Positions 8,052-24,700 of a stretch of 64,000 nt of DNA are shown here, piece by piece; positions within the stretch are counted from its first letter, which is position 1; every line of letters begins with the position of its first letter. Origin of the DNA: a virus; the IMG/VR virus record IMGVR_UViG_3300037258_000279, positions 29,665-93,664 of that record. The stretch is one strand, 5' to 3'. The translations under genes were made by a program, and so were the position numbers. Below the pieces are notes generated by a model that worked only from the letters and a program-made list of their open reading frames with translations, did no database searches and had not been told where the DNA came from.

Positions 8052-8283
8052 GCGGTCAGCCCGGCGTGTCGCGTGCCGAGATTCGGAATCGCCATCGGAT
8101 CCGACTGCGCCAACCCCAATCCCCCAGCGGAAAGACGAGCCGGTTAGCCTGGAAGGTTCCCCACCCAACCTCCCCGGCTCAAGTTTAGGGAGGAAACGCC
8201 TAGAAGACGTACAGCATGATCATCGGGCGACGACCAAGCCGCGAACAATTTATACCGGATTTTGCGGTCGCTTGCTAGCGTGA

Positions 8284-8829
8284 TTAGCGCTCGAGCTCGG
8301 CCGACCAGTAAAGCCAATCGCCGAACGATTCTTTGACGTCATTCGGCAGCAGCTCGAGCCCGGCCCGCAGCAACTCGCTGTGGGTCGGCTGCCGCGGGAG
8401 CGATAGCGGCTTCATCAAGTCGCCGTCCCTCTTCGCCAGATTGCATGGCGAGCACGACGTCAGGATGTTGTCCCAGGTCGTCTTGCCACCCCTGGCGCGC
8501 GGGTTAAGGTGATCGAACGTCAGATCCTGGCGCTCGAACCGCTCGCCGCAATATTGGCACCGGTAGCGATCGCGCAGATAGACCGACGCGCGGCAGAACT
8601 TCGGCTTGCCATGCACCGGCGCGAACTCGCGCAGCATCACGACCTTCGGCACAGTGATCGTGGTCGACGGCGAGCGCAGTGCTTCCGGTCATTCGTCGAT
8701 CGCGACGACGCGGTCCATGTAGATGGCGTGTACGGCGTCCTCGGCCGACCAGATGCTCAAGGGCCAGGTCGAGAGAGGTCTGGCGTCCGAATTGAGGACG
8801 AGACAGCGTCTTTGTAGGCCGGCGTTCAT
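8284..8829 (-). pseudogene. HNH endonuclease interrupted by one in-frame TGA (8689-8691)
   Basis: ORFs 8689..8916 and 8284..8652 share a frame: LVLNSDARPLS...IDE*PEALRSPS...RDRYRCQYCG...LTFDHLNPRARGGKTTWDNILTSCSPCN. Confidence 0.8.
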
Positions 8830-8855: not shown

Positions 8856-8930
8856 TGGAGCCGGCGGAGGGAATCGAACCCGTCGTTGGGACGTTACGAA
8901 TGTCCTGTCCTGCCACTGAACGACGCCGGC
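8856..8930 (-). tRNA. tRNA-Thr(CGT)
   Basis: cloverleaf, loop TT-CGT-AA, encoded CCA. Confidence 0.85.
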
Positions 8931-8935
8931 GATGG

Positions 8936-9009
8936 TGGTGGGCCTGCTCGGAATTGAACCGAGATCAACGCCTTAAAAGGGCGCAGCTTGACCTTCCAGC
9001 TACAGACCC
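8936..9009 (-). tRNA. tRNA-Lys(TTT)
   Basis: loop CT-TTT-AA, CCA. Confidence 0.85.
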
Positions 9010-9013
9010 GAAT

Positions 9014-9090
9014 TGGTGCGTCGCCTCGGATTCGAACCGAGACTTGCCGGGATTTGAAGCCGGTGCTTCTGCCAATTGAGCGAGCGACGC
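9014..9090 (-). tRNA. tRNA-Leu(CAA), short variable arm
   Basis: CCGGC-TTCAAAT-CCCGG with C31.C39 mismatch, A73, CCA. Confidence 0.7.
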
Positions 9091-9094
9091 GAAA

Positions 9095-9169
9095 TGGTGG
9101 TCCCGCAAGGAATCGAACCTTGATCCCGAGATTCGGATTCTCGGATGCTATCCGTTGCACTACGGAACC
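9095..9169 (-). tRNA. tRNA-Arg(CCG)
   Basis: loop AT-CCG-AA, CCA. Confidence 0.85.
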
Positions 9170-9246
9170 GGCACCGGTGACAGGAGTCGAACCTGCATCG
9201 TCCAGTTATGCACCGACCGCTTAGAAGGCGAGGCCAATACACCGGC
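9170..9246 (-). tRNA. atypical tRNA-Arg(TCT)-like gene, no D arm, long variable arm
   Basis: acceptor GCCGGTG/CACCGGT, T arm GCAGG-TTCGACT-CCTGT, CGC-CTTCTAA-GCG; ends GCC with no full CCA. Confidence 0.6.
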
Positions 9247-9254
9247 AAAAAGTC

Positions 9255-9331
9255 TGGCGCACCCGGAGGGATTCGAACCCCCAACCTCTCGATCCGTAGT
9301 CGAGCGCTCGGTCCAGTCGAGCTGCGGGTGC
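9255..9331 (-). tRNA. tRNA-Arg(ACG)
   Basis: loop CT-ACG-GA, CCA. Confidence 0.9.
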
Positions 9332-9335
9332 AATC

Positions 9336-9411
9336 TGGCGCCTCGTAGCGGATTCGAACCGCTGTCTCCGGAGTGAAGGTCCGGCCACCTAGCCGCTAGT
9401 AAGAACGAGGC
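9336..9411 (-). tRNA. tRNA-Glu(TTC)
   Basis: loop CC-TTC-AC (C33), CCA. Confidence 0.8.
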
Positions 9412-9415
9412 AATC

Positions 9416-9490
9416 TGGTAGGCGCGGGCGGGGTTGAACCGCCGACCTCCTGCGTGTCGAGCAAGCGATCTACCGCTGATCTACGCGCCC
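9416..9490 (-). tRNA. tRNA-Val(GAC)
   Basis: loop TC-GAC-AC (C33), CCA. Confidence 0.85.
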
Positions 9491-9494
9491 AAGC

Positions 9495-9569
9495 TGGTAC
9501 CCCGCGACGGGATCGAACCGCCGACATCCTCGGTGTAAACGAAGCGCTCTACCTCTGAGCTAGCGGGGC
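9495..9569 (-). tRNA. tRNA-Val(TAC)
   Basis: loop TT-TAC-AC, CCA. Confidence 0.9.
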
Positions 9570-9574
9570 ATGTT

Positions 9575-9651
9575 TGGTCGGAGTGAGTGGATTCGAACCA
9601 CCGGCCCCAGCGTCCCGAACGCTGTGCTCTGCCATGCTGAGCTACACTCCG
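9575..9651 (-). tRNA. tRNA-Pro(CGG)
   Basis: loop TT-CGG-GA, C1-G72, CCA. Confidence 0.9.
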
Positions 9652-9656
9652 TCATC

Positions 9657-9732
9657 TGGCGCTCTTGGTGAGGCTCGAACTCACAACCCCCGAACTAGGA
9701 TTTCGGTGCTCGTCCGATCGAGCTGCAAGAGC
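9657..9732 (-). tRNA. tRNA-Arg(CCT)
   Basis: loop AT-CCT-AG, CCA. Confidence 0.85.
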
Positions 9733-9736
9733 AAAT

Positions 9737-9814
9737 TGGTGCGGGCGACAGGATTCGAACCTGCGACTTCCCGGTCCCAAACCGGGCGCTCTGGCCTGAC
9801 TGAGCTACACCCAC
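9737..9814 (-). tRNA. tRNA-Pro(TGG)
   Basis: loop TT-TGG-GA, CCA; G1-C72 instead of the usual C1-G72. Confidence 0.85.
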
Positions 9815-9823
9815 GAACGAAAC

Positions 9824-9897
9824 TGGCGCTTCCAGTCGGGATCGAACCGGCGTTGACGGCGTGACAAGCCGCTCTCCTACCATTGGAGGATGGAAGC
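9824..9897 (-). tRNA. tRNA-Asp(GTC)
   Basis: loop TT-GTC-AC, G73, CCA. Confidence 0.85.
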
Positions 9898-9906
9898 AAA
9901 CGAATT

Positions 9907-9981
9907 TGGTGGGCTGCCAGGGACTCGAACCCTGAACCTACGGATTAAGAGTCCGCTGCGCTACCATTGCGCCAGCAACCC
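9907..9981 (-). tRNA. tRNA-Lys(CTT)
   Basis: loop CT-CTT-AA, CCA. Confidence 0.9.
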
Positions 9982-9984
9982 GAT

Positions 9985-10060
9985 TGGTGGGCCAGTACGG
10001 GGTCGAACCGTCATCGGACGCTTATCAAGCGTCTGCTCGCAGCCGTTGAGCTACAGGCCC
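9985..10060 (-). tRNA. tRNA-Ile(GAT)
   Basis: loop TT-GAT-AA, CCA. Confidence 0.85.
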
Positions 10061-10061
10061 G

Positions 10062-10146
10062 TGGTGGGTCGGCGTGGTGTCGATCCACTCCCCCGCAGGG
10101 ACGGGTTTTACAGACCCGCTGCCGGATCCGCCGGCTTTGCCTTCCC
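10062..10146 (-). tRNA. divergent tRNA-Tyr(GTA)
   Basis: CGGGT-CTGTAAA-ACCCG, long V arm, 5-bp D stem, ATCGACA T loop, CCA. Confidence 0.75.
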
Positions 10147-10152
10147 GTGATC

Positions 10153-10227
10153 TGGTGCCCGGTGACGGATTTGAACCGCCGGCCTCTCCCTTACCGAGGG
10201 ATTGCACTGCCGCTGTGCTAACCGGGC
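10153..10227 (-). tRNA. tRNA-Thr(GGT)
   Basis: loop TC-GGT-AA (C33), CCA. Confidence 0.85.
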
Positions 10228-10232
10228 ATACC

Positions 10233-10324
10233 TGGCGGTGCCGGAGGGATTCGAACCCTCGGGCCGGCTTTCACCGGCCAACGGTTTAGCAAACCGCCGC
10301 CTTCGGCCACTCGGCCACAGCACC
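10233..10324 (-). tRNA. tRNA-Ser(GCT)
   Basis: loop TT-GCT-AA, long V arm, G73. Confidence 0.9.
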
Positions 10325-10328
10325 ATGT

Positions 10329-10418
10329 TGGAGGAACGTGATGGCATCGAACCATCAGCCGCTCGCGCGGCGCCCCGGGTTTCAGAGCCGGTGAAGGAGC
10401 CAACCTTCGGCACGTTCC
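10329..10418 (-). tRNA. divergent tRNA-Ser(TGA)
   Basis: CCGGC-TCTGAAA-CCCGG, long V arm, 5-bp D stem GAAGG/CCTTC, U73. Confidence 0.7.
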
Positions 10419-10421
10419 AAT

Positions 10422-10509
10422 TGGCGGTTGGGGTGAGATTCGAACTCACGGTGCCCGTAGGCACTCCGGGTTTCGGGTCCGGCGCAATCGGCCACTCTGC
10501 CACCCAACC
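10422..10509 (-). tRNA. tRNA-Ser(CGA)
   Basis: loop CC-CGA-AA (C33), long V arm. Confidence 0.8.
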
Positions 10510-10518
10510 AAACGAATC

Positions 10519-10608
10519 TGGCGGACGGTGAAGGATTCGAACCTTCGGTGCCCAGAACGGGCACGCCGCGATTCCAACGCGGTGCAATCGCCACTCTGCC
10601 AACCGTCC
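10519..10608 (-). tRNA. tRNA-Ser(GGA)
   Basis: loop TT-GGA-AT, long V arm. Confidence 0.9.
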
Positions 10609-10612
10609 GAAC

Positions 10613-10696
10613 TGGTGTCCCCGGGGAGAGTCGAACTCCCACGCCGCGAGGCACAGGCACCTCAAGCCTGCGCGTCTACCATTCCGCCACGAGGAC
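10613..10696 (-). tRNA. tRNA-Leu(GAG)
   Basis: loop TT-GAG-GT, long V arm. Confidence 0.9.
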
Positions 10697-10701
10697 AATT
10701 T

Positions 10702-10786
10702 TGGTGCGAGCCGGGAGAGTCGAACTCCCATGTCTTGCGACACTCGGTCCTGAGCCGAGCGCGTCTGCCTATTCCGCCAGGCTCGC
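10702..10786 (-). tRNA. tRNA-Leu(CAG)
   Basis: loop CT-CAG-GA, long V arm. Confidence 0.9.
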
Positions 10787-10792
10787 GTGATC

Positions 10793-10868
10793 TGGTGCGG
10801 GCATCGGGAGTCGAACCCAATGGAAGCCAGGGTTTAGGCCCGGCCGCGTCACCGTGCGCCATGCCCGC
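10793..10868 (-). tRNA. tRNA-Leu(TAA), short variable arm
   Basis: CCGGG-CCTAAAC-CCTGG (C33), A73, CCA. Confidence 0.7.
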
Positions 10869-10872
10869 ATAT

Positions 10873-10948
10873 TGGCGTCCCGCGGGGGAATTGAACCCGC
10901 CGTTTCCCGAGTGAGAGTCGGGGTTCCTGACCGCTAGAAGAGCGGGAC
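10873..10948 (-). tRNA. tRNA-Glu(CTC)
   Basis: loop CT-CTC-AC, CCA. Confidence 0.85.
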
Positions 10949-10953
10949 ATGGT

Positions 10954-11029
10954 TGGCTGCGGCGGAACGGATTCGAACCTTCGACCTGCGCGCTCAAAAC
11001 GCGCTGCTCTACCGCTGAGCTACGCCGCA
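10954..11029 (-). tRNA. tRNA-Gln(TTG)
   Basis: loop TT-TTG-AG, U1-A72, G73. Confidence 0.85.
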
Positions 11030-11035
11030 ACAAAT

Positions 11036-11109
11036 TGGCAGGGCGGCTCGGATTCGAACCGAGGCGAACGGAGTCAGAGTCCGTTATGCTGCCGTTACAT
11101 CACCGCCCA
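11036..11109 (-). tRNA. tRNA-Gln(CTG)
   Basis: loop CT-CTG-AC, CCA. Confidence 0.85.
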
Positions 11110-11116
11110 TCAAAAC

Positions 11117-11191
11117 TGGTGCCGGTAGAGAGGATTGAACTCCCGACCTTCGCATTACAAATGCACTGCTCTGCCGCTGAGCTATACCGGC
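11117..11191 (-). tRNA. tRNA-Thr(TGT)
   Basis: loop TT-TGT-AA, CCA. Confidence 0.9.
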
Positions 11192-11268
11192 TGGGGTGAG
11201 TAGTGGGGATCGAACCCACGAATGATCGGTTCACAGCCGACCGCGTTAGCCACTTCGCCATACCCACC
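11192..11268 (-). tRNA. tRNA-His(GTG) with encoded G-1:C73
   Basis: loop CT-GTG-AA; G-GTGGGTA...TACTCAC-C-CCA. Confidence 0.9.
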
Positions 11269-11271
11269 ACG

Positions 11272-11356
11272 AAAATGCTACCCGGTGGTCTTGCCTTGAA
11301 ACGACGCCCCACGCGTGAGACGGACAGGTATCGAAACCTGCATCACCGGGTTCTTT
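11272..11356 (-). ncRNA. circularly permuted tRNA-like RNA (resembles the YrlA tRNA-mimic domain)
   Basis: terminal stem ACCCGGTG/CACCGGGT enclosing a T-like arm, a loop-closed acceptor-like hairpin and a D-like arm, in that order. Confidence 0.65.
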
Positions 11357-11430
11357 TGGAGGTGCGCCGCGGAGTCGAACCGCGATTGCGGGATTTGCAG
11401 TCCCGAGCCTAGCCGTTCGGCCAGCGCACC
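11357..11430 (-). tRNA. tRNA-Cys(GCA)
   Basis: loop CT-GCA-AA, U73. Confidence 0.9.
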
Positions 11431-11434
11431 AATC

Positions 11435-11510
11435 TGGCACCGGGGGAGGGATTCGAACTCTCGACACGCGGTTTTGGAGACCGCTGCTCTAGCCACTGAG
11501 CTACCCCGGT
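11435..11510 (-). tRNA. tRNA-Trp(CCA)
   Basis: loop CT-CCA-AA, G73. Confidence 0.9.
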
Positions 11511-11513
11511 AGA

Positions 11514-12107
11514 TCAATAAACTCCGTTCCTGCTGTCGGTGCGAAGCCATTTTCTGACGGCCGCTTCTGATACGCCATATCTCGCGGCGACTTTGACTCG
11601 AGATGCCCGCACCACCATTTCCCGAAGCCGCTTTCCTTCGGGTCTGTCCGGGACCTTAGCTTTAGCCTGAGACCGACATCGATTGCTGCAAAACTTTAAG
11701 CCGGCTCGCAAAGGGGCGCCGCACTTTTCGCATGCTGCCCCATCGTCACGCGGGAGGGTCGCAATGTTCCTTCTCGTGACGCGACCATTACGCATAGATA
11801 GCGGGATTGTTGCCTCGTCAAAGCGCCGAATATTGTCTGGGATTCTGGTGCTCCCCTCATGCACCTCGTCGTGGCAGTTGTGACATAGCATCACACATTT
11901 TCTTGCCTCGTCCGCGACCCGCTTCCATGATCGCGGGACACCGTTGGACGCCATGCTAAATTTTTTCTGCGCCGGCTCGACGTGATGGAACGTCAAGGCG
12001 CGCATCGACTTCGCGTAACCGCAAATTCCACAACGGCCGCCGAACGCGACGACGAGCTTTTCTTTCATTCGTTGCCGCCAACGAACGACCGCAGCGCCAC
12101 CGCTCAT
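11514..12107 (-). CDS. HNH (homing-type) endonuclease with zinc ribbon and C-terminal HTH, inside the tRNA array
   Basis: ATG at 12107; GGRCGICGY...LTFHH...KCVMLCHNCHDEVH; CEKC...FCSNRC; VAARYGVSEAAVRKW. Confidence 0.85.
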   Translation of the reverse strand: MSGGAAVVRWRQRMKEKLVVAFGGRCGICGYAKSMRALTFHHVEPAQKKFSMASNGVPRSWKRVADEARKCVMLCHNCHDEVHEGSTRIPDNIRRFDEATIPLSMRNGRVTRRNIATLPRDDGAACEKCGAPLRAGLKFCSNRCRSQAKAKVPDRPEGKRLREMVVRASRVKVAARYGVSEAAVRKWLRTDSRNGVY

Positions 12108-12109
12108 TT

Positions 12110-12184
12110 TGGCTCCCCGAGCTGGACTCGAACCAGCGACCTGCCGCTTAACAGGCGGTTGTTCTACCACTGAACTACCGGGGA
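12110..12184 (-). tRNA. tRNA-Asn(GTT)
   Basis: loop CT-GTT-AA, G73. Confidence 0.9.
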
Positions 12185-12189
12185 AAAAA

Positions 12190-12292
12190 CTGAAAGAGAG
12201 TTGCCGAAGCTCCCACTGCCCGGGCTTTTCCGCGCGGGTTCGCCACACGATTTCTCGCTGGCGTGGCCCCGACGGACGGCTGCCCGTGTCGG
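12190..12292 (-). ncRNA. unassigned structured RNA (four hairpins) in the tRNA array
   Basis: CCGAC/GTCGG, GCCACG/TGTGGC, CCCG/CGGG and GGGAG/CTCTC stems in an array whose other spacers are 0-10 nt. Confidence 0.4.
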
Positions 12293-12293
12293 A

Positions 12294-12368
12294 TGGAGCG
12301 GGCGACGAGAATCGAACTCGCGACATTCTGCTTGGAAGGCAGAAGCTCTACCCCTGAGCTACACCCGC
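12294..12368 (-). tRNA. tRNA-Gly(TCC)
   Basis: loop CT-TCC-AA, U73. Confidence 0.9.
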
Positions 12369-12377
12369 AATCTTGTG

Positions 12378-12441
12378 CTCGCCCCGGTCGGCGCTGTCGT
12401 GAACAGCATGGAGTGACTTGGCCACAACCGACCGGGACGAA
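12378..12441 (-). ncRNA. unassigned three-way-junction RNA
   Basis: ~15-bp stem TTCGTCCCGGTCGGT/GCCGACCGGGGCGAG capped by hairpins GTGGC-CAA-GTCAC and GCTGT-TCACG-ACAGC. Confidence 0.5.
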
Positions 12442-12442
12442 T

Positions 12443-12518
12443 TGGTGCCGAAGAGTGGAATCGAACCACTGACACCCACGCCTTCAACGTAGTGCTCTAC
12501 CTGCTGAGCTACTTCGGC
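12443..12518 (-). tRNA. tRNA-Phe(GAA)
   Basis: loop TT-GAA-GG, CCA. Confidence 0.9.
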
Positions 12519-12521
12519 AAA

Positions 12522-12750
12522 TTTCTCGGGGCTGGATTTGTCATTCCTCCGTTCCTTGCTAGCAGGGGGAGTCGCAGATACCAGCATACAGGATTGCGGC
12601 ACAGCCACCTTTAGGCTGGCGCTACCAGCCGCTGCGTCCTTGGTGTTTGGACGACCCGAGAATCTTCCGGCGACCGGACCAAGTTCTCATGCAGGAGATC
12701 CCGCCAAGGTCCGAACATTTGCATCATTGACGCCTTAGGGGCGTACCGCC
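12522..12750 (-). ncRNA. unassigned multi-branched structured RNA
   Basis: TTCTCGGG/CCCGAGAA closes a ~140-nt domain with CGTCC/GGACG, CAGCC/GGCTG, GCTGG/CCAGC and CTCC/GGAG stems; upstream CGGACC/GGTCCG domain. Confidence 0.45.
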
Positions 12751-12754
12751 GAGT

Positions 12755-12831
12755 TGGTTGCGCTGGCCGGCAATCGAAGCCGGCGACCTTCGGGTTATGG
12801 ACCCGACGAGCTACCTCTGCTCCACAGCGCG
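12755..12831 (-). tRNA. initiator tRNA-fMet(CAT)
   Basis: C1.A72 mismatch, GGG/CCC anticodon stem, loop TC-CAT-AA. Confidence 0.85.
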
Positions 12832-12836
12832 TCAAA

Positions 12837-12912
12837 TGGTGGCAGGGGTGGGAGTCGAACCCGACGACCTGAGCGTTATGAGCGCACCGATCTACCGCTG
12901 ATCTACCCTGCT
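12837..12912 (-). tRNA. tRNA with CAT anticodon (elongator Met or Ile2 not resolved)
   Basis: loop CT-CAT-AA; A1.C72; lacks the three G-C pairs of initiators. Confidence 0.75.
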
Positions 12913-12919
12913 ATCGAAT

Positions 12920-12994
12920 TGGAGCGGGCAATGGGAGTCGAACCCACGACCTCAACCTTGGCAAGGTTGCGCTCTGCCCCTGAGCTATGCCCGC
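12920..12994 (-). tRNA. tRNA-Gly(GCC)
   Basis: loop TT-GCC-AA, U73. Confidence 0.9.
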
Positions 12995-12998
12995 AAAT

Positions 12999-13074
12999 TG
13001 GTGGAGGTAGAGGGACTCGAACCCACGACATCCTGCTTGCAAAACAGGCGCTCTCCCAACTGAGCTATACCCCC
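12999..13074 (-). tRNA. tRNA-Ala(TGC)
   Basis: G3.U70, loop TT-TGC-AA. Confidence 0.9.
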
Positions 13075-13092
13075 GGAAAAAATCTGGCGCAT

Positions 13093-13245
13093 CTGGCTTT
13101 CAAGGGACCACCGGATCGCCCGGCCGTCTTCCTAGTGGTGTGGCCCGGCGCACGCGGCGCCAGTTGTCCCGATGCAGAGCCGGGGAAGGTCGAACCAGAC
13201 CTTGCTTGCCGGTGGTCTACAACCCCTACGCCTTCGACAAACCAA
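13093..13245 (-). ncRNA. Y RNA-like ncRNA
   Basis: 5' TTGGTTTGTCGAAGG (contains GNCGAAG) pairs with 3' CCTTGAAAGCCAG as a bulged helix; 13-nt asymmetric loop; perfect 9-bp GACCACCGG/CCGGTGGTC stem; branched apical domain. Confidence 0.6.
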
Positions 13246-13250
13246 TAACG

Positions 13251-13280
13251 AAAAAACCTCCCGCGGTTTCCCGGGGAGGC
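13251..13280 (-). terminator. intrinsic terminator (candidate attenuator) upstream of the RNA array
   Basis: GCCTCCCCGG-GAAA-CCGCGGGAGG-TTTTTT. Confidence 0.85.
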
Positions 13281-13309
13281 TCTTCGATCTTTCGATCTGA
13301 TCCGAGTAT

Positions 13310-13447
13310 TTATTTCTCGGACGAAGCCTCCCTGCGGGCGGGTTGCCGCTGCGCGCTATTACCCATCGGGTGATGGATAAAGGACGTGCGCGACCACCCG
13401 AATGTTTCGGATAGTTTCGCTCGCAGATTTGAGGCCGTTAAGAGCAT
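13310..13447 (-). CDS. putative attenuator leader peptide, 45 aa (MLLTASNLRAKLSETFGWSRTSFIHHPMGNSAQRQPARREASSEK)
   Basis: ATG at 13447 to TAA at 13310, between promoter and terminator; GGGAGGCT at 13325-13332 is complementary to terminator arm AGCCTCCC at 13274-13281. Confidence 0.65.
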   Translation of the reverse strand: MLLTASNLRAKLSETFGWSRTSFIHHPMGNSAQRQPARREASSEK

Positions 13448-13454
13448 GGCGGGA

Positions 13455-13483
13455 AACCTAGTGTCTACCGACCGACTTGTAAA
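13455..13483 (-). promoter_or_regulatory. sigma70-type promoter of the tRNA island
   Basis: TTTACA-N17-TAGGTT, then 7 nt to the leader ATG, so the transcript would be leaderless. Confidence 0.6.
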
Positions 13484-13511
13484 GGGGGTTTCTCGCGATA
13501 TTTTTTACGAA

Positions 13512-13937
13512 CTATTTCACGTTGGCGAAAAACATGGTGCTGCCTTGTTTCCCCGTCATTGTGGCACCTTGCGTCCATGCCGGCGCCGCGATGGTATCGG
13601 CGTAGAAATTGACGGCACCGCCGGTCGGATCCCCCTCGCCCGCCACCACCGCCGCCAAGACTTCATCGTAGGCTGCGAGCGCGTCGAGGATCACCGGATC
13701 GTCGGGTGCTTTCGCGGCCACGCGTTCGAGATTGGCATTGTCTGCCGAATCCGCGTTCCATTCGCTGAACTGCATGCGCTTCAGACACACCGCCGCTGGC
13801 GTCGAGCCATAGCGCGCCGGATTGATCTGAGCACGATTGAAGATCACCCAGACGATCCAGCGCCGTGCCGTTGGGTCATTCTCTTCGCATGCCGCCGTGA
13901 TGGCGCACACGATGCGATCGGCAAAGCCCGTGTTCAT
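13512..13937 (-). CDS. cell wall hydrolase / endolysin (SleB, Hydrolase_2-like)
   Basis: EE...VIFNR...VCLKRMQFSEWN...DPTGGAVNFY...PAW motifs. Confidence 0.85.
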   Translation of the reverse strand: MNTGFADRIVCAITAACEENDPTARRWIVWVIFNRAQINPARYGSTPAAVCLKRMQFSEWNADSADNANLERVAAKAPDDPVILDALAAYDEVLAAVVAGEGDPTGGAVNFYADTIAAPAWTQGATMTGKQGSTMFFANVK

Positions 13938-14314
13938 ATGCGTGCCGGCCTGTTCTGGCCGAGGTCGGTATTCTTGAGCGCCAGAACCAGAATCTCGTCG
14001 AAGCGCTCGCGCAGGGCGTTCAGCGCCACCGTCTGGTCGCGCATGCCGAACTCAAGGCGAGTGATATCGCCATCGAGATCGTCCCGGCGCACGTAGTTGT
14101 CTTTCACGGCCGATATCTCGTTGCGGGCGATGTTGAATTTGCCGTCAAGAGAGGTCGCTACTCCTTCGATCTTCTCGAGCAATATTTGTTCGCCCTTTTC
14201 GCGGCGTTCGTCAACGCGGTTGATGTACGCGATGAGACGCCACGCCACCGTTCCAAGCGTACCGGCACCAGTCCCGACCAGCGCCACAAGCGCTATGATT
14301 TCGCCGGCTCCCAT
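13934..14314 (-). CDS. membrane protein (N-terminal TM plus coiled coil), holin/antiholin candidate
   Basis: hydrophobic N-terminus; ATGA-coupled to the endolysin. Confidence 0.55.
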   Translation of the reverse strand: MGAGEIIALVALVGTGAGTLGTVAWRLIAYINRVDERREKGEQILLEKIEGVATSLDGKFNIARNEISAVKDNYVRRDDLDGDITRLEFGMRDQTVALNALRERFDEILVLALKNTDLGQNRPARI

Positions 14315-14401
14315 CTCTTATTCTCCCAATCGATGGTTCGGGCCCAATAAGCAGGTGAGGCGATTAAGCCCCACCTGTTCTCGGCGATCAGACTGGAAGT
14401 G

Positions 14402-15755: not shown

Positions 15756-18700
15756 TTATGGATAAGGGTTCTGCGTGATCCCTTGAGCTTTTTGGGTCTT
15801 TTTCATTTCATAAGCGCGCGGGTCACTCATCTGCTCAACAGATTTTCTGATGGCCTCGATGATGTCAGAGGGCTTCTTAGCAAGCCCGGGATTCGCAATA
15901 ACGAGACGCTTTGCTTGATCTGTCAGCTCGGCTGCCTCGTTGGCATCGCCGGCAATGCGCGCGCGGGCTGCTCGCGTGATAAGCAATGCCGCATCGCGCT
16001 CGACACGCTGACGCAGTTCATCGTTTTGATGTTCAAGCCGATAGGCGTAGTCGGACTGTGCGTATTCCTGTTCCTGTTGGAGCGGTTGGAAGCCAAGCGC
16101 CTGCTTGGCTATATCCGCGCCCGGCATGTCGGCAGGACGGTCGAGCATAGTACCTTTTTGCGAAATTCGGCCTTGGTCGGATTCAAGCAATGCACGAGCC
16201 GGATTGCGAAGCGCCGATGGCAGAAGCTCCGCTGCGGCCGCGCCAGCACCCTGGGTCTGATCGCGCGTATAAGCGGCCTGCAACCGCTGATACAGCATCG
16301 AGGGAATGGTGCCAATGACATTGGTTGGGTCCATTTCTCTGGAGATGACATCGCCGAAACCGATTCGGCTCGAGAGATTTACACCTGCGAGCGAGGCGAT
16401 TGGGCCACGTAGCATGACGTCGGCCCCGGCCTTTGAAAATCCGGCATCAGACATCATCTCGCGCAGATGGGCGTCCGTCATCGGATCGCTGCCCCCATTT
16501 AGCATGCGCCCCAGGGCATCAGCGGCGGACTCGGCGTCTTGCGTGAATGGAAGTCCATAGGCGCCAGCGCCGAGCATCAGAGTCCCCATCATCCAAGCAA
16601 ACGCCGTCTTGCCTTCCGGGCCCATGTTTTTCATCAAACGAAAAGCCGTCGAGAGATAGCGCGTCTGAAAGCCGTGCAGCGAGAACAGGAGCGTTCCCAT
16701 CGGGCCGCGCATTACGGGAGAACGGTTTTCGCTACCCCACTCGTAGGCACCTTCCGACAGCATGAACCGGGAGAAATTCTCCGGCGTCAAACCATCACGC
16801 TCAACCATATCGCGGAACAAGGCACTGTGTTCGGCGAGCGGCTTCGCCATCGCCGCCAGCGTTTTTGGATTGCTGGCGAGCCGGTAAGAAGACAGTGCGA
16901 CAGCGGCACGATTGGCTTGGTCGACGATGCCGATATTCGAGGTGGCAATATCCATGGCACGGCGAAACCGCCCCGCCGCATCGCCAAACGTCGAGGCTTG
17001 CCGTTCGCTCAACGCACGCAGATCGTCGGCACCGAGCGCACGCAAGCGCCCCTCATTAGCGAGAGATGAGATGAGGGCTTTTTCGTCGGGCGTGCGTCCC
17101 ATTCGATCGAGATTGATGAAGAATCCATTCTTACGGTCAGCACCGGCGTGCCCATAAGCCTCGCGCAGCGCGCCAGCTAATGCGGCGCCGGCGCGCACCA
17201 TGCCAATGCCGGTCGAGAGTACGGGAGCCGCTGCCATCGGGGTATGCAGCGCGATTACCAGAGTCGACGATGGATTCATGGCGAGCGCGTAGGAAAACCC
17301 GATCTGAGCAGCATGCGTCGAGGCGCGCGAGAGAATGCCTTTTTGGTCTTCCTGCGCCCCACGCCACTTTTGCCAATAGTCGCGCACGCTTTGATGCGGA
17401 TGATTGTCTTGGATGTTATCGTAGGCTTCCTCCACGGCGTTATGATGCACCATGTTGGCCGCGTTGTGCGATACCTGCCAGATATGCGTGCCGATCGCGC
17501 GATCAAAATCCTGCGAATAACCCGGTGTGAGGTCGGCTCGGCGTTTGAAGCCAGCAGTCAGCGCCTCGTAGATCGAGTCCAGCAACGCTTCTTTCGCGGC
17601 ACCCGTTGTTGCCCGATAGCGGTCCAATGCCTCGCCGCCGACGAGGCGTCCGGATTTATCGTATTGAGCAGCTTCGCCTTTCGCCTGCTTGGTTTGCGTT
17701 CGGGTAAGACCCTCCGGCGGAGTCTTTTCCTGCATGATCTGCGAAATCATTTTGCCAGTGGCATCGCGTTCCATGAGCGCGAACAGTTTTTCGAGCGCCG
17801 GCATATCGATTTCGCGCAGGATGTCCGGCTTGCGGCGCAAATCTCCCGTTTCAATTATATGTGTCGGCGATTCCCATCGTCCCGGTCCGACGCGCTGGAA
17901 AGCACCAAATGCCGGCGCCCCTGTGTTATCTGGCATTGTGCCAAGTGCGGCGATACGGTTTTTGACTGCGGCAATATCGTCGGCGTTCCGCCGCGTGGTG
18001 CCGAGCCAGTCTTCCATCGAGCTTTTCTCAACGGTTTCGAACCATTTCACCTCGGGATAACCGCCGAGCGATTCAGGGTCTTGACCTTGTTTCGGCCGCA
18101 CGGCGACATAATAATCGCCAAAGCGCATGGCCGGAAAATAAGGGCGGTCCAACGCCCGCTGAGCCTCATGGAGCGCTGTCGCGAGGCGTGCCAGTCGATG
18201 GCCCTCCGGTGTACCGATACCTGCCTCGCGAGCCCCAGCGCTCACGGCGGCAGCAGTTAGATCGCCATTCCAGCCTTCGCGTTTCGCCATCGCCGACATG
18301 ATGGTGCGCCAGCCTTCGTCACCTAGCCGCAAGCTATCGTGAAACGCCTTTGTCTCTTGCGGTGATAGGAGATAGTCGTCACCAGGTTTTGACATGCGCG
18401 CTTGCCAGAACGACGTATTGTGCACGCGGATCGGCGCGCCATCATCGGGAGGGCGCCAGTTCCATTTTCGGGCAAGTTCGAGCGCCGCATAGACGCGATT
18501 TCGCGACGGCGAATCGAGGCTCACCAGCGAATCAGCGACAATTTTCCGTAGATTATTGCCATTTCGTGCCGCCTCATCGTCACGGGCGCGCCACGCATTC
18601 CAAAAGCGTGCCGACATATCATCCAGCGTTGCGAGCGTTCGCGGGAAGATCGAGAATCGCTCTACCGGATTAAGATTTTTGATCTGTCGCGTACCACGTC

Positions 18701-21700
18701 GAGCAAGTTCCGGAAGTGCCCGTTCCTCGGTCGTCGGTCCTTTACCGGAAGGTGCTCCGGGTGATCCCGATACTGAATCGATCAGTCCGGAAACCGCGTC
18801 GCGGTGGAGAGCCTCTTCCGGTGTCAGCCGTTGTTCTGGCGAAGTATTTCGTTCCGCTGCAAAATCGGGGCGGTCTTCGGCTAGACCGGCGACTGCTCCT
18901 TGCGCTTCGCCAGTTCCTGCTCGGCTCTCGATCGTTCCCGCTTCACGTCCGGATCGTCCTGCGGCAGGTTGTCTAATTCCTTCAGAAAGTCTTGCCATGC
19001 TTTCGTCGGGGCGAATGGTGTCGGCGGATCGATCAGACCGTGCATTGGCATCCTCTCTAGGCTTAGCATCAAAAAATGTCTGGGCAGCTCGCTGCACCCT
19101 GTCAGCTGCCTCCCGAATGATGTCACGAGCACCCGGCACGTCGGCCAGATCGCGTGACGACATGTAATCAATCACACCGCCGGAATCCAGTGCCCGATTA
19201 ATCAGGTCGGAATAAATGGAGTCCGCGTGTTCTTGTGTAATCTCCGCCGAATTAACAAGACGGTCTAGCCCACGAAAGACGGCATTTTCCGCAGTGGCAT
19301 AGAGGCCGCCGATTGCTCGCTCGGCGTCCCCCTGACTTCCCAACCATTCCTTGGCTTCCGGCGTCAACTGGGCGACATAGGTGTTTCCATCATGGCCGTG
19401 AGCAACGATAGTTCGAAGGCCCGGAAAGGCCAGCTGTCGCATGTCCTGTTCACTCAGGGAATTACCCAACGGGTGGTTGTGATGGACCACCATCGTACTG
19501 GACTGATCCTCAAGGCGCCCCACGAGGTCTGGTGTAAAAGCGACGTATTTCGGCGATGCCATCGTGTAGGCATGAGTCAGTTCACCGCGGTCCTGATCGA
19601 TCGCAGCCAAATGTTCATGGCCAGAGTTTTGTCCGTGATAGATGGTCCAGTTGCGCGCGGCGGTATGCGGATCGCCGGTCTGAGCGAAATCATCACGCAG
19701 GTCTGTGATGGCCGCACCGACGGGTGCCTCTTTGTCGTTGCCCTCGAACAGCGCCTGCCCTCGCATGACGCTTTCGCGCATCTTCGGGGTGATCTCGACG
19801 GAGTGGACCAATTTATTCGCTGGACCAGAAGCAAAATCTCGTGCGCCTCTTTCCGTGTTAAATTCCCGATAATCATACTGGTCGCCCGGCATGTATGCGA
19901 TCCATGTACCTTCTGAGTCCTGCGTAACTTTATACGGGCGCTGCTGCGCATTGATTTCGGAATCCTCGGCCTTCGCGCCCCACTTCTTGCTAAGGCTGTT
20001 CACGATCTGCGGCAATTGACGATCATAGAACGCCACCATGCCAGCACTGCCAACCTTCAGATCATCACCGCGCAGCGTTCCAGCGCCTTCCGGCTCGCCG
20101 TGGTCGCGGCCAACATTATCGACGATCTTTTTGGCGGCATCCTTGCCGACGATGTCCTCAAGCTGTTGCGGCGTGAGATCGCGGCGACCGAGCACTTCCT
20201 CGAAATCACCGGAGCGAGGACTGCCGCGCTTCCTGGCGCTGATCGTGTAGCGTCCGTCATCTTGCTTCGCGTATCTGATCTCGTCGATTTGTTTGCTCAG
20301 GTCGTACCGGTCCGCGTTCGTCGCGCCGGTATCCCAGGACAATTTTTGGTAGCCGTTTTCGGCGGCGTATCTGAGCAAACGCTTAACCGCAAGCTCCGGC
20401 CATGAGGTTTTGAAGGGAGCGTCCGGGACTAGATCGCCAGCCTCTGCCGCGTAGGCTGCATTGCGTTCACGTTGCAGCTCCTGGTTCCTCGCCAGCAGAT
20501 CTGGGTGCCTCTGCCAGGACGCCATTAGCGCAGCATCGCTGTGAAGGTATTTCGCCTCGGCGCGGATTTTCGCTTCGTCTTCGTTCGCGGCATCTACTTC
20601 GTAGCGATGTCCGGTGCGGGCATCCGTAACAACCCACTCTCCAAGCTCGTAGCCGTGAGTTTTGTTGACCCCAACCTTTTCTGCCAAAAGCTGCGGCGCG
20701 TCGCGGCGTTCAAGTTCCATCAAGACGCCATCCATATCATCGTCAATTTCGCTGACTGAGCGCCCTTTGTGTTGCCCCCGATACCCGCGCTTTCTTCCGG
20801 CCTGATGGAGATCGCTCTGAATCTCCGCGACGTGCAGCACCCTCTCGCCGTTCGGCCCAGTGCGATCGTCAAAACGGACATGCGCCAGGACGTTCGGCTC
20901 TTGCCAGTGACCTGAGCGGTAATCCTGCCGTTCAGCACCGCGCCGATTGCGCGCGAGCATCTGCGCTGTGTTGGCGATAACGGCCTCGTCGTCCGAAACG
21001 GAGTCATGCGTGATGGCGACGACCTCACCCTTCGCGTCCAGCACCTCGGCGCCATCCGGCCCCTTGTCACGGACCGTCCAGCCGGTTGTATCAATTTTTG
21101 GCTCGCGCTGCGGCATCGTGAGTAGAAGTTCGCGGTAATTCTCGCCACCAGGAAGACGGTAGTGGCCGTACTTTGCCGGGGCGCCGCTGAGTCCTTGGCG
21201 CGCCATTGTCTCGTCAACCATGCGACCGTGTAGCGCTTCGCGCTCTGCTGAAAGGCGGCCGCCCTCGTGGCGCAGGTCAGATGCGCGCTGCGTATCGTTG
21301 GCGTAGTGTGCGCTGCGCTCTTCGGTATCGACATCGTGAATGCGGCGGTTCAAATCCTCAAACGCTGCGGCATGTTCTTGTTGCGCCCGCGCATCTGGCA
21401 CGGTTTCGTCTCGCACTGGGCCGTGCATCACCTCCTGCACTTGGACATTGTTCTCGCGAACGGCTTGGAGCAGATCAGCCTTCGTCACCGCGCCCTTTTT
21501 GCTGTCCAAGAAATCGTTCACGCCCGTCCAATCGACTTCCTCTTTTTTGATCCCCGGCATGTTGCGGATCATGCCCTTCCAGGATTCAGGCGAGGCTTTG
21601 TCTAGCTTGGCGTTCTCGATGCCGCGTTCAAGCGCCGAGTAAAAGATTGGCGATGCTTCGGCCAATCCGCGCCGTGTTGGCGGCTCTCCAAAAGGCAATT

Positions 21701-24700
21701 CCGCCGTATTGTCTATGGGCTTGAACAATCCCTCATCGGCGTCTTTTTGCTGAACACGGGACCGGATGCGCCCACGCCCTTCCGCTTCGCGCGATGAGGC
21801 CGCCTGGCGCGCCGATTGTTCGGCGCCAGGAAGGACTACTTGTTCTCCGGCTGCGGTTGATTCTGTTGCCGGCTCGCGCCCAATGCCTTCACCGCGGACT
21901 TGATCGCCGCGAGTTGCGATCGCACCAGATTCTTCACGACGCGTCTGCGCTGCTGATTGAGCGGCTGATTCTGCAAATCGCGGAGTCGTTTCAGGCGCTC
22001 GCGACTGTGGTTCAGGTGTTGCTGAGCTTCGTTCATCGTCACCAATCCAGGGAATATCTTCTGCCGCAGCCACGGCGTCAATATCGCGCTCAATCTGGGC
22101 TCGGACTGTATCCGAATGAGCACCATCCGCGATGATTGCCTCACGCTCATGAATCATGGCGAGAAGATCGTCATTATGGGGATGGCTGGCCGGATCGATG
22201 CCCAGCGCTGAAGCGCGCGCTTCTAACTCGTTGTGATAAGGATTGCCCTCGTAGGCGCGTTTATGGTCTTCCCAATCCCGTAGTGCGCCAACATCGTCGG
22301 CGGAATAGCGCGCATTGCCGCGGAGCGTGTCATCGATCGCACTGTAGAGATCGCTAATGGTCGAATCGCTGGGCCGATTTGGATTATCGCGCGGGAGATA
22401 CCCGGCTTCCTGGGCGATTTCGCGCGCGTGGTCGTCGTTCATTCCGCGCCCGTCTTTGCGCACCAGCATGCCGTATCCCGGAATGAATTTCTTATGTGCA
22501 TCCATCGCGCGCAATTCGCCGGAAGGGTTAAGACCGCCGCGCGACGCCAGAAACTCCACGATGTTCATGGGACGCCGGGGGGCGTTCTCTCTTGAAGAAG
22601 GTGGCGTTGTTGCTGTCTCGGCAGCAACCGGTTTGGTGGTGTCGCCCTCTTTCAGCCAGGTCTTCAGCTCATCGAGCGACATCGGCGTGACATTCCCGAT
22701 GCGCTGTTCGCCTTTGCCATCGGAAAATGCCCCGACATAAGCTTGGTGCGCGCCCTGCCAGTCATTGAAGCCAAGCATAACTTTAGCTTCGTCGTAAGCG
22801 CCTGACGCCGGATCGATTTGGTCTATAACAAAAGCGCGCTGGCTATCATGGTTCGGCCCCATATAGGCATCCACATGTTCGCCGTCGGCAGCTTCGGTTT
22901 TTGATATGTAGCCGTAGTCGCTTGGAAGCTGTGCTGTCCAAGGTTGACCATCGGCACCGACACCATGACGTACTGAGCCTTCCGGGTTTTCCATGACGAA
23001 CGGAATCCCATGAAATGAGACGCGGCCCTTGGAATAATTCCCAGAATCAATTTGTCCTGGCGTGGGATTTGTTTCGGTTGTCGCGCGCGCCTGATCGATC
23101 TGCTGCGCGATTTCTTCCGGCGTGCGAGTACCGCGCGTCAGGGGTAGTTCGCCTTCAGGTCCAGGAGGCGACGGGGAAGGGGCCGCACCCCCCACCGGTA
23201 ACGGCGCCGACTTGTCCGGTGCCTCCTGGATTGCTGGCGGCTGGTTGATTTTTAAGTCAACCGGTGATGCCACAATAGGTTGATCCGGCGCCGCCGCTTG
23301 CGCTGGCTGGGGCTCTACCGGTTGTGCCTGACGGCGCGCCGCGATTTGATTCAGATCTTCGGCATATTGCCCGGCCGCTTCGGGTGTCGGGACGATCTGG
23401 CCAGGGTGAGTCGTCTTCGTCGCTTCCGCCTGCTGGATGATATCCTGTGGCGTGACCGGCGGCTGTGGTTGGGCCTGCGCCTCGAGTTGCGCCTTCGCCG
23501 CAGTCAGGCGTGCCTCAACCGGGGCGGCTGGCTGCCCGCGCGCGGCGGCCGCCGCGCTGGTCGCCTCGCCCTTAAGCGCGTCGAGCGCCGGGGATTGAGG
23601 CTTCGGTATCGGTATTGGTACCAATGGGGCAGGCCCGCTCGGCGGACCGCTTTCTGGAGAACCTCGATACCTTGAGACGGCATAGGCATTAATGCTGTAC
23701 TGGTTGCCGCTTGGATCGCCCAATATCACATCGTGCGCGGGGGTAAATCCCTGCACCTGCATCGGGATAACGTCATTACCGACCGGCATCGGGATCATTT
23801 CGCCAATCTTAGGCGTTCCTAGACCACCACGGACAGATGGTGCGGGCTGCGATTCCGCGGCGATGGCGGGCGGCGGCGGCGCTGGTGGTGGCGGATTAAC
23901 GCTCGCTGCCGCTGCTTCTGGGGTCGGATGTCGAGCATCTGTCACGATCCCGTCGGGGCCGCGTAATCCCCAAAGTCCCGTGGCCGGATCAAGCGCCACA
24001 TCCGGTTTTTCAGTCGGCGCTGTTTCGGGAGGGCCATGCGCGCGGTCCGATCCTGGAATATTGCCTGGTGGTGGAGGCCCAGGTGTCGATCTCAATGCGT
24101 GCGCGATACCGGCATGGACAATTGCGGGCGCGGCAGTCCCAACCACCGCGCCCGGAACGCCTGACAAGACGTCTTGGCCGATCGGCTTGCCTTCGGCGAC
24201 ATTCTCGACCGCTTTCTGACCGACTGCCACGGCAGGCTGCAACCCGAACGCCTGAAAGACGGCGTCTTTCAGCACATTCTTGAACGGTGCGAAACCGAAT
24301 AATCCATAGGACACGCCAGCGGCGCCGGATTCGATGCCGGTGCGCTTCAAGGCCAAACTCCATGCCGCTTCGTTGTCGCCCTTGGTTTCCTGCAATGCCT
24401 GGCCGAAATTCACGCCAAGACTCTGAATCGTGTTACCTGCCGCAGCGCCAGCCGCGGTGCCGGCGATGCCTGTCGCCCACGAAATCGGGTCTTCAGGGCC
24501 ACCACCCAGAGCAATACCGGCCAACCCGCCGCCGTAAGCCGCTGCCGCCGTCGGCGCCGCGGCGGCAAACTGATAGAGCGTCTTTTTCAGCAACGTAAGC
24601 GGCTTCCACAGATCACTCCCCTCGATCGGCTGCGCGGCCAGAAGATCTGGCTCCTGCACGTCCGGTTTTCCCCCCGTCACGGCTTGGCCGGTTTGCATGA

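Follow-up and report, generated by a model that had tools for sequence, protein, structure and literature searches.

The virus record IMGVR_UViG_3300037258_000279 is 93,664 bp long and carries direct terminal repeats; we analyzed the 64,000-nucleotide (nt) window that comprises its bases 29665-93664, and positions refer to this window unless the genome is named. On the minus strand of the window, an endolysin gene is followed by a leader stretch and then by 35 transfer RNA (tRNA) genes. We propose that the leader probably contains a conditional terminator gating the tRNA array. A conditional gate is the most economical explanation because the leader RNA is extremely structured, its antiterminator pairing is better than chance, and no other promoter for the array was found. 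As for the trigger, we tentatively favor the leader of a tRNA-array transcription unit in which host Nus factors act on a boxA-like sequence at the predicted 5′ end. An earlier note on this DNA had listed a promoter, an ATG, a 45-codon open reading frame (ORF), an 8-nt complementarity, two small hairpins and a terminator, and all of them were found exactly where it had placed them.

The 208-nt RNA corresponding to 13447-13240 on the minus strand folds at -96.2 kcal/mol, compared with -64.7 ± 4.6 kcal/mol for its shuffles (z = -6.84), and it ranks first among the 2337 minus-strand windows of the whole 93.6-kb genome after GC correction. The 5′ domain of the leader alone reaches z = -4.66. In this domain, segments 1 and 2 form a closing helix (1:2) that encloses hairpins A, B and C in a four-way junction. 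It is followed by two small hairpins, D (TCCGAG/CTCGGA, over the UAA stop codon of the ORF) and E (GATC-GAAA-GATC), and by an intrinsic terminator made of segments 3 and 4. A fold-based census placed this terminator among the two or three compact canonical terminators of the genome, and a simple terminator scan misses it because the stem carries a one-base bulge. Hairpins A and B have the arm ends UAUCC...GGGU in common, as if they were duplicated modules.

The complementarity between GGGAGGCT (13332-13325) and AGCCTCCC (13281-13274) is the core of an alternative pairing between segment 2 and the terminator 5′ arm. This 2:3 duplex has a predicted energy of -24.8 kcal/mol, which was equalled by 0.6% of shuffles and by 0.6% of genome windows (P = 0.006). 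We relied on this duplex-energy test, as the statistic of any pairing of the terminator arm did not discriminate the leader from shuffles. The helices 1:2, 2:3 (antiterminator) and 3:4 (terminator) are predicted to be mutually exclusive, and the isolated antiterminator domain is about as stable as the terminator (-28.6 versus -24.1 kcal/mol). Two folds compete within 1-2 kcal/mol in nascent transcripts of 176-182 nt, which are cut before the terminator 3′ arm; at 182 nt, the free and the tail-masked folds are 1.3 kcal/mol apart. In the free nascent RNA, nt 3-8 (GCUCUU) pair with nt 164-169 (AAGAGC), and nt 12-26 pair with nt 112-123 to close the four-way junction, while the terminator arm stays free. 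When the 5′ end is covered, nt 110-124 pair instead with nt 166-178, forming a 13-bp antiterminator around hairpins D and E.

Without a ribosome, the 1:2 helix dominates the 182-nt transcript with a probability of 0.72 against 0.25 for the antiterminator. Masking nt 1-11 alone raises the antiterminator from 0.25 to 0.98 and thereby flips the switch as well as a ribosome footprint does, and the model goes over to the antiterminator when the first 11-28 nt are covered. Nucleotides 1-11 are unpaired in the 5′-domain fold and pair only with nt 164-169 once these have been made. The full-length RNA, unlike the nascent transcripts, adopts the terminator fold whatever is masked. This is normal for attenuators, where the decision is kinetic. 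The trp/his-type attenuator geometry recognized in the earlier note stands as far as the exclusivity of 1:2, 2:3 and 3:4 and the in silico switching are concerned, while its codon-sampling part falls (see below). In these models, the trp-like geometry is real in silico and broader than expected.

No phage RNA polymerase was recognized among the large ORFs, and therefore host polymerase signals should matter. The candidate promoter consists of TTTACA (13483-13478), a 17-nt spacer, TAGGTT (13460-13455) and the 7-nt TCCCGCC, followed by the ATG at 13447, all on the minus strand. It matches 8 of the 12 positions of the sigma-70 consensus, which is below the promoter-scan threshold, and the relaxed pattern occurs twice genome-wide against an expectation of about 2.3. 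Nevertheless, no other site of this quality occurs on the minus strand from 13520 to 8800, a 4.7-kb stretch that spans the array; no promoter-like site matching at least 8 of 12 positions is present in the spacer or the array 3′ of the terminator. The upstream A/T tract includes a 10-nt A/T stretch, one of only 18 A/T runs of at least 9 nt in the 93.6-kb genome. Judged by what is known of E. coli stable-RNA promoters, the tract looks like an UP element, and promoter, tract and GC-rich discriminator together resemble a stable-RNA promoter. We infer from this arrangement that transcription starts at 13447; factor binding and actual read-through are further steps of the same kind. No repeated phage promoter motif was found in the genome. 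The only other good sigma-70-like promoter of the genome, TTTACA-N17-TATATT, lies outside the window at genome positions 14289-14317 on the plus strand (L049). A hairpin and T-run overlap its -10 region, and about 120 nt of GC-rich 5′ untranslated region lie between it and the likely true start of a 521-aa HNH-domain protein.

The predicted transcript begins with A-UGCUCUUAAC, and the latter closely resembles boxA, the site bound by NusB/S10, the consensus of which is UGCUCUUUAACA in E. coli (PMC13753749) and GYTCTTTAANA in gamma-proteobacteria (PMC5725501). Compared with the E. coli consensus, which may not be that of the host, UGCUCUUAAC lacks one U and carries G in place of the final A, and it keeps the C4 and T6 of that consensus. 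The lambda genome (NC_001416) has CGCTCTTAA at nutL and CGCTCTTAC at nutR, and the core GCTCTTAA is identical to the nutL core, a functional two-U form. On both strands of the genome, UGCUCUUAAC is the sole match to the fuller boxA pattern, and it lies 150 nt 5′ of the terminator. With this assignment, the AUG would be explained without translation, as a purine start followed by UG. Operons of clustered regularly interspaced short palindromic repeats (CRISPR) are, like the tRNA array, long untranslated arrays. A boxA is also found 5′ of CRISPR operons, boxA alone is enough to prompt an antitermination complex, and the ribosomal RNA (rRNA) antitermination complex hinders intrinsic termination and blocks Rho (PMC13753749). 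Published work has found boxB dispensable for rrn complexes. By analogy, a boxA ahead of 4.4 kb of untranslated tRNA genes makes functional sense.

In the mechanism we tentatively prefer, host RNA polymerase would start at or near 13447 from the stable-RNA-style promoter, or would read in from the late operon, and would make the 5′ tail, the four-way-junction domain and the two small hairpins before reaching the strong intrinsic terminator. By default, the tail GCUCUU would pair with AAGAGC at the base of the terminator 5′ arm and segment 1 with segment 2; the terminator would then form and leave an RNA of about 195 nt. Occupation of the first 11-28 nt would free segment 2 to build the 13-bp antiterminator with the terminator 5′ arm, and polymerase would enter the array. 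The likeliest occupant would be host NusB-S10 bound to the boxA-like sequence, perhaps with the aid of a phage cofactor, as with lambda N at nut sites. Such binding would also nucleate an elongation complex resistant to Rho and terminators, as in rRNA and CRISPR leaders, and this would suit a 4.4-kb untranslated RNA.

Several points weigh against this explanation. The core GCTCTTAA is not enriched in the genome (2 observed, 1.8 expected). No hairpin with a GNRA-like loop that could serve as boxB lies within 20 nt of the boxA-like motif, the GAAA hairpin E being 140 nt off, and no GU-rich boxC was seen in the leader. A crude look at three other phage tRNA arrays (DSS3_MAL1, RcXuper and CcrColossus) revealed no boxA-like motif. 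The motif was recognized post hoc, which carries a look-elsewhere cost, and it was compared with E. coli, gamma-proteobacterial and lambda sites, from which the consensus of the host itself may differ. All of the switch numbers are equilibrium nearest-neighbor predictions for one sequence, and conservation and covariation likewise have a single sequence to draw on. Classical Nus/boxA action proceeds by modification of the polymerase and not by refolding of RNA, and we infer the link from boxA occupancy to the 2:3 helix. Leader-peptide attenuation is the established user of the 1:2/2:3/3:4 geometry, and we know of no boxA embedded in an RNA switch.

The established user of this geometry brings in the ribosome, and the earlier note had indeed proposed a translation-sensing attenuator with a codon-sampling leader peptide. 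In this alternative, which we consider rather doubtful, the 45-codon ORF is translated leaderless from the first base of the transcript. A slow or stalled early ribosome would cover the tail and segment 1 and thus allow the antiterminator and transcription of the array; a ribosome in the last 11 codons or at the stop would cover segment 2 and hairpin D and give the terminator; and without translation, 1:2 would form and lead to termination too. A ribosome-footprint scan conforms to this scheme, with antiterminator probabilities of 0.98-0.99 at codons 1-13, mixed values from 0.1 to 0.98 at codons 14-34 and 0 at codons 35-46. The ATG coincides with the predicted +1, 8 nt after the -10 hexamer, at an unpaired 5′ end, and the ORF covers both segment 1 and segment 2 and ends 13 nt beyond the latter, ahead of segment 3. 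Its rarest codons, UUA at position 3 (relative use 0.14) and CUA at position 12 (0.28), cluster where stalling would work best, and the 12 codons that follow the ATG have a codon adaptation index of 0.47. ARAGORN places tRNA-Leu(UAA) among the array genes, and a sensor of translation is biologically sensible ahead of tRNA genes. It is thus conceivable, if doubtful, that the ORF works as a general translation-speed gauge: a ribosome lingering at the early rare codons would call up 35 tRNAs on demand, and the tRNAs supplied would close the gate again in a feedback loop.

In contrast, the ORF itself hardly stands out from its background. As the earlier note had counted, it uses 34 distinct sense codons, the first 20 of which are all different, and has no Cys, Asp, Val or Tyr codon. 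However, dinucleotide shuffles that stay open contain 31.8 ± 2.1 distinct codons, and 34 or more are reached with P = 0.21. The argument from codon sampling fails the comparison by which the note itself proposed to judge it, because this diversity is that of composition-matched random sequence; it exceeds the diversity of the real phage genes only because base composition is more even in this stretch. For the 20 different initial codons, the shuffles give P = 0.026, yet this feature was picked post hoc. The open frame is also ordinary: 28% of shuffles remain open, and a second frame of this stretch runs for more than 65 codons without a stop. With a codon adaptation index of 0.58, the ORF falls between phage genes (0.71 ± 0.09) and off-frame sequence (0.51 ± 0.06). 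No Shine-Dalgarno sequence precedes the ORF, which therefore needs a leaderless start from a weak, predicted promoter. There is no run of any one codon that could be regulatory, a database search with the 45-aa peptide returned no homologue, the three long perfect hairpins within the ORF would have no role, and the near-complete tRNA set makes a match between codons and array uninformative. A spanin or holin role of the peptide was discarded, since it has no transmembrane segment or lipobox.

Chance explains the AUG and the 8 nt after it much less well than the boxA-like reading does. Translation as the trigger would leave the boxA match to chance, at roughly 0.002-0.01 after the look-elsewhere cost by our own rough estimate. 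The Nus/boxA trigger leaves only the ORF to chance, and the ORF is not improbable given the boxA start, since open frames abound here. On sequence grounds alone, either a ribosome or a host antitermination factor could flip the switch.

We searched for relatives of the locus. Neither the endolysin sequence by itself nor an endolysin alignment led to a relative with an array in viral, metagenome or genome collections. In the viral and metagenome collections, no endolysin relative exceeds 52% identity and none lies near tRNA genes, and an endolysin that is 64% identical is encoded on a 73-kb contig (P0002). No synteny with the endolysin relatives extends beyond the endolysin gene, and BLAST revealed no trace of the leader RNA at viral endolysin loci. 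At none of the 24 endolysin-bearing loci that were checked does a terminator follow the endolysin stop codon within 500 nt. Because these relatives lack it, the terminator belongs with the array, which suggests that leader, terminator and array came or evolved together and that the terminator is not an ancestral operon end. Searches with the large terminase and, in the viral collection, with the C-terminus of the 3144-aa protein gave no close relative. In bacterial genomes, no relative was found. Exact and structured DNA pattern searches yielded nothing, or chance matches inside genes. A crude look at the tRNA arrays of DSS3_MAL1, RcXuper and CcrColossus showed no cassette of promoter, ORF and terminator.

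These comparisons bear on the view that there is no regulated gate at all and that the leader is a stand-alone structured small RNA, or that the 47-kb late operon simply ends here with a structured 3′ end and a terminator. The alternative pairings would then be fortuitous, and the array would be transcribed through a leaky terminator or from an unrecognized promoter. The genes from 64000 down to the endolysin lie on this strand, and the terminator is the first compact one after them. Transcripts entering from the late operon favor the terminator-permissive fold (0.93), which would fit such a view, as would the persistence of the terminator in the full-length RNA under any mask and the failure of the cruder switch statistic on shuffles. 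We nevertheless regard it as unlikely: a 2:3 pairing this strong is rare (P = 0.006); complementarity to neighboring switch elements is found in the tail and in both segment 1 and segment 2; the region 3′ of the terminator offers neither a promoter-like site nor, in the spacer, structure; and the endolysin-bearing relatives have no terminator at this position.

Another effector, such as a small ligand, a protein of the phage or host, or a tRNA, that stabilizes or disrupts 1:2 at the four-way junction in a riboswitch-like or protein-mediated attenuator is the least probable of these explanations and in our view very unlikely: the architecture is aptamer-like, with a closing helix whose 3′ strand doubles as the antiterminator strand and which encloses three hairpins, two GAAA tetraloops are present and the two states are near-equal in energy, but no Rfam family matches even at E = 10, no ligand or protein is a candidate, the junction is known from a single sequence, and a T-box was rejected, as the GGGUGGU stretch that recalls it is buried in hairpin A and the T-box model gave no match.

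Table 1. Coordinates of the leader, its predicted elements and the tRNA array (window positions)
Feature	Position	Strand	Basis or remark
UP-element-like A/T tract GTAAAAAATAT	13498..13508	-	about -61 to -51 relative to the predicted start
Candidate sigma-70-type promoter TTTACA-N17-TAGGTT, followed by the GC-rich discriminator TCCCGCC	13455..13483	-	sequence
45-codon ORF, ATG to TAA; leaderless if transcription starts at 13447	13310..13447	-	sequence
boxA-like UGCUCUUAAC, +2 to +11, in the unpaired 5′ tail	13437..13446	-	consensus comparison, fold
Segment 1 (GGCCUC + CUGCG), 5′ strand of closing helix 1:2	13422..13436	-	fold
Hairpins A (13415-13393), B (13383-13356) and C (13349-13338), inside helix 1:2, four-way junction	13338..13415	-	fold
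Segment 2 (CCGCAG-GGAGGCUU), pairs with segment 1 or with the terminator 5′ arm	13324..13337	-	fold
Hairpins D (UAA stop in loop) and E (GAAA tetraloop), arms of the three-way antiterminator	13286..13322	-	fold
Intrinsic terminator: 5′ arm GAAGAGCCUCCCCGG, GAAA loop, 3′ arm CCGCGGGAGG, U6	13250..13285	-	fold, -24.1 kcal/mol
Spacer, terminator to first tRNA	13075..13249	-	no excess structure (z = 0.02), no promoter-like site
tRNA array, 35 genes with an HNH endonuclease gene inside	8856..13074	-	ARAGORN

From 64000 down to 13512, the genes of the window are nearly all on the minus strand and form one late block, which encodes the large terminase, the portal, structural and ejection proteins, a 3144-aa protein and a lysis region ending in the Hydrolase_2 endolysin gene (13937-13512). 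The 3144-aa virion-type protein (15756-25190, minus strand) contains an inorganic pyrophosphatase domain (PF18823) at residues 712-847 (E = 6.9e-43). The first tRNA of the array is tRNA-Ala, which starts at 13074, 176 nt 3′ of the terminator. The spacer, for which a Y-RNA-like nature had been suggested, folds no better than shuffles, has no Rfam match and ends in a U6 run just before tRNA-Ala. An Rfam search of 13060-13530 at E ≤ 10 returned nothing but a chance RNAI match (14.8 bits against a cutoff of 47), and a wider search at E ≤ 1 gave no family match for the leader. Models of 6S RNA, GOLLD and ROOL did not match, and ARAGORN found no transfer-messenger RNA, including the two-piece form.

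Two regions of the array matched the Rfam tRNA-Sec model below its cutoff, 10333-10418 (37.9 bits) and 10796-10869 (33 bits), both on the minus strand. The former occupies a gap between two tRNA-Ser genes in which ARAGORN finds nothing; it is probably a further tRNA with a long arm, so that the array would hold more than 35. Two HNH homing-endonuclease genes, one inside the array (11514-12326) and one just after it (8284-8652), are on the minus strand and were assigned by PHROG with E = 7.5e-24 and 1e-22, respectively. They recall the homing endonucleases of the T4 tRNA region and by this analogy suggest that the array is a mobile or actively maintained module. A 240-nt ORF-free gap between tRNA-Met and tRNA-Phe (12519-12758, minus strand) folds only weakly above shuffles (z = -1.42). 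Just 3′ of the array, 8122-8215 on the minus strand gave a sub-threshold match to the alphaproteobacterial small RNA family suhB/mmgR (30.1 bits, with the cutoff at 41; E = 0.003), which may point to a host among the alphaproteobacteria.

Little has been established about the timing and dosage with which phages express large tRNA arrays, and our literature search turned up no publication in which attenuation or boxA controls a phage tRNA array. If the switchable terminator is true, tRNA supply would be regulated and not constitutive. With a Nus/boxA trigger, phage tRNA arrays would follow the same antitermination logic as rRNA and CRISPR arrays, and boxA would form part of an RNA switch. A ribosome trigger would be a new use of trp-type attenuation for tRNA replacement on demand and would bear on counter-defense against tRNA-cleaving host systems.

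The erm, cat, bmrCD, vmlR and lmo0919 leaders are ribosome-mediated attenuators that respond to a general inhibition of translation; when a ribosome stalls within the leader ORF, the terminator behind it opens, a logic that they would have in common with the ribosome-triggered switch. Their targets are resistance genes and their signals are specific drug-stalled peptides, whereas no such stalling-peptide motif is evident in the 45-codon ORF. The nearest published case, a long tRNA array of Anabaena known as the trn operon, is induced under translational stress (PMC8421152) and has the repressor TrcR (PMC10272220). Both arrays are large and accessory, and the expression of the Anabaena array is conditional and tied to the state of translation; there, the promoter is controlled via direct repeats and the repressor, and neither report mentions attenuation, a leader or a terminator.

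The attenuators of amino acid operons (trpL, hisL and leuL, and Sinorhizobium trpL/rnTrpL; PMC6614838) likewise have a short ORF overlapping segment 1, exclusive 1:2, 2:3 and 3:4 helices and an intrinsic terminator ahead of the regulated genes, and termination is predicted here as there both without translation and after its completion. In contrast to them, the phage leader has no run of cognate codons and no Shine-Dalgarno sequence, would require a leaderless start, carries a long predicted ORF of 45 codons through a four-way junction and precedes tRNA genes. With the boxA/Nus signals of rRNA, CRISPR-array and suhB leaders and of lambda nutL and nutR (PMC13753749; PMC5725501; PMC8632103), it has in common a 5′-proximal single-stranded UGCUCUUAAC ahead of a terminator and a long untranslated multi-RNA transcript. 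Unlike in those signals, the boxA-like sequence here has no adjacent boxB and no boxC, lies at +2 and not tens of nucleotides past the start, and is complementary to the terminator arm, so that it would itself be part of the RNA switch.

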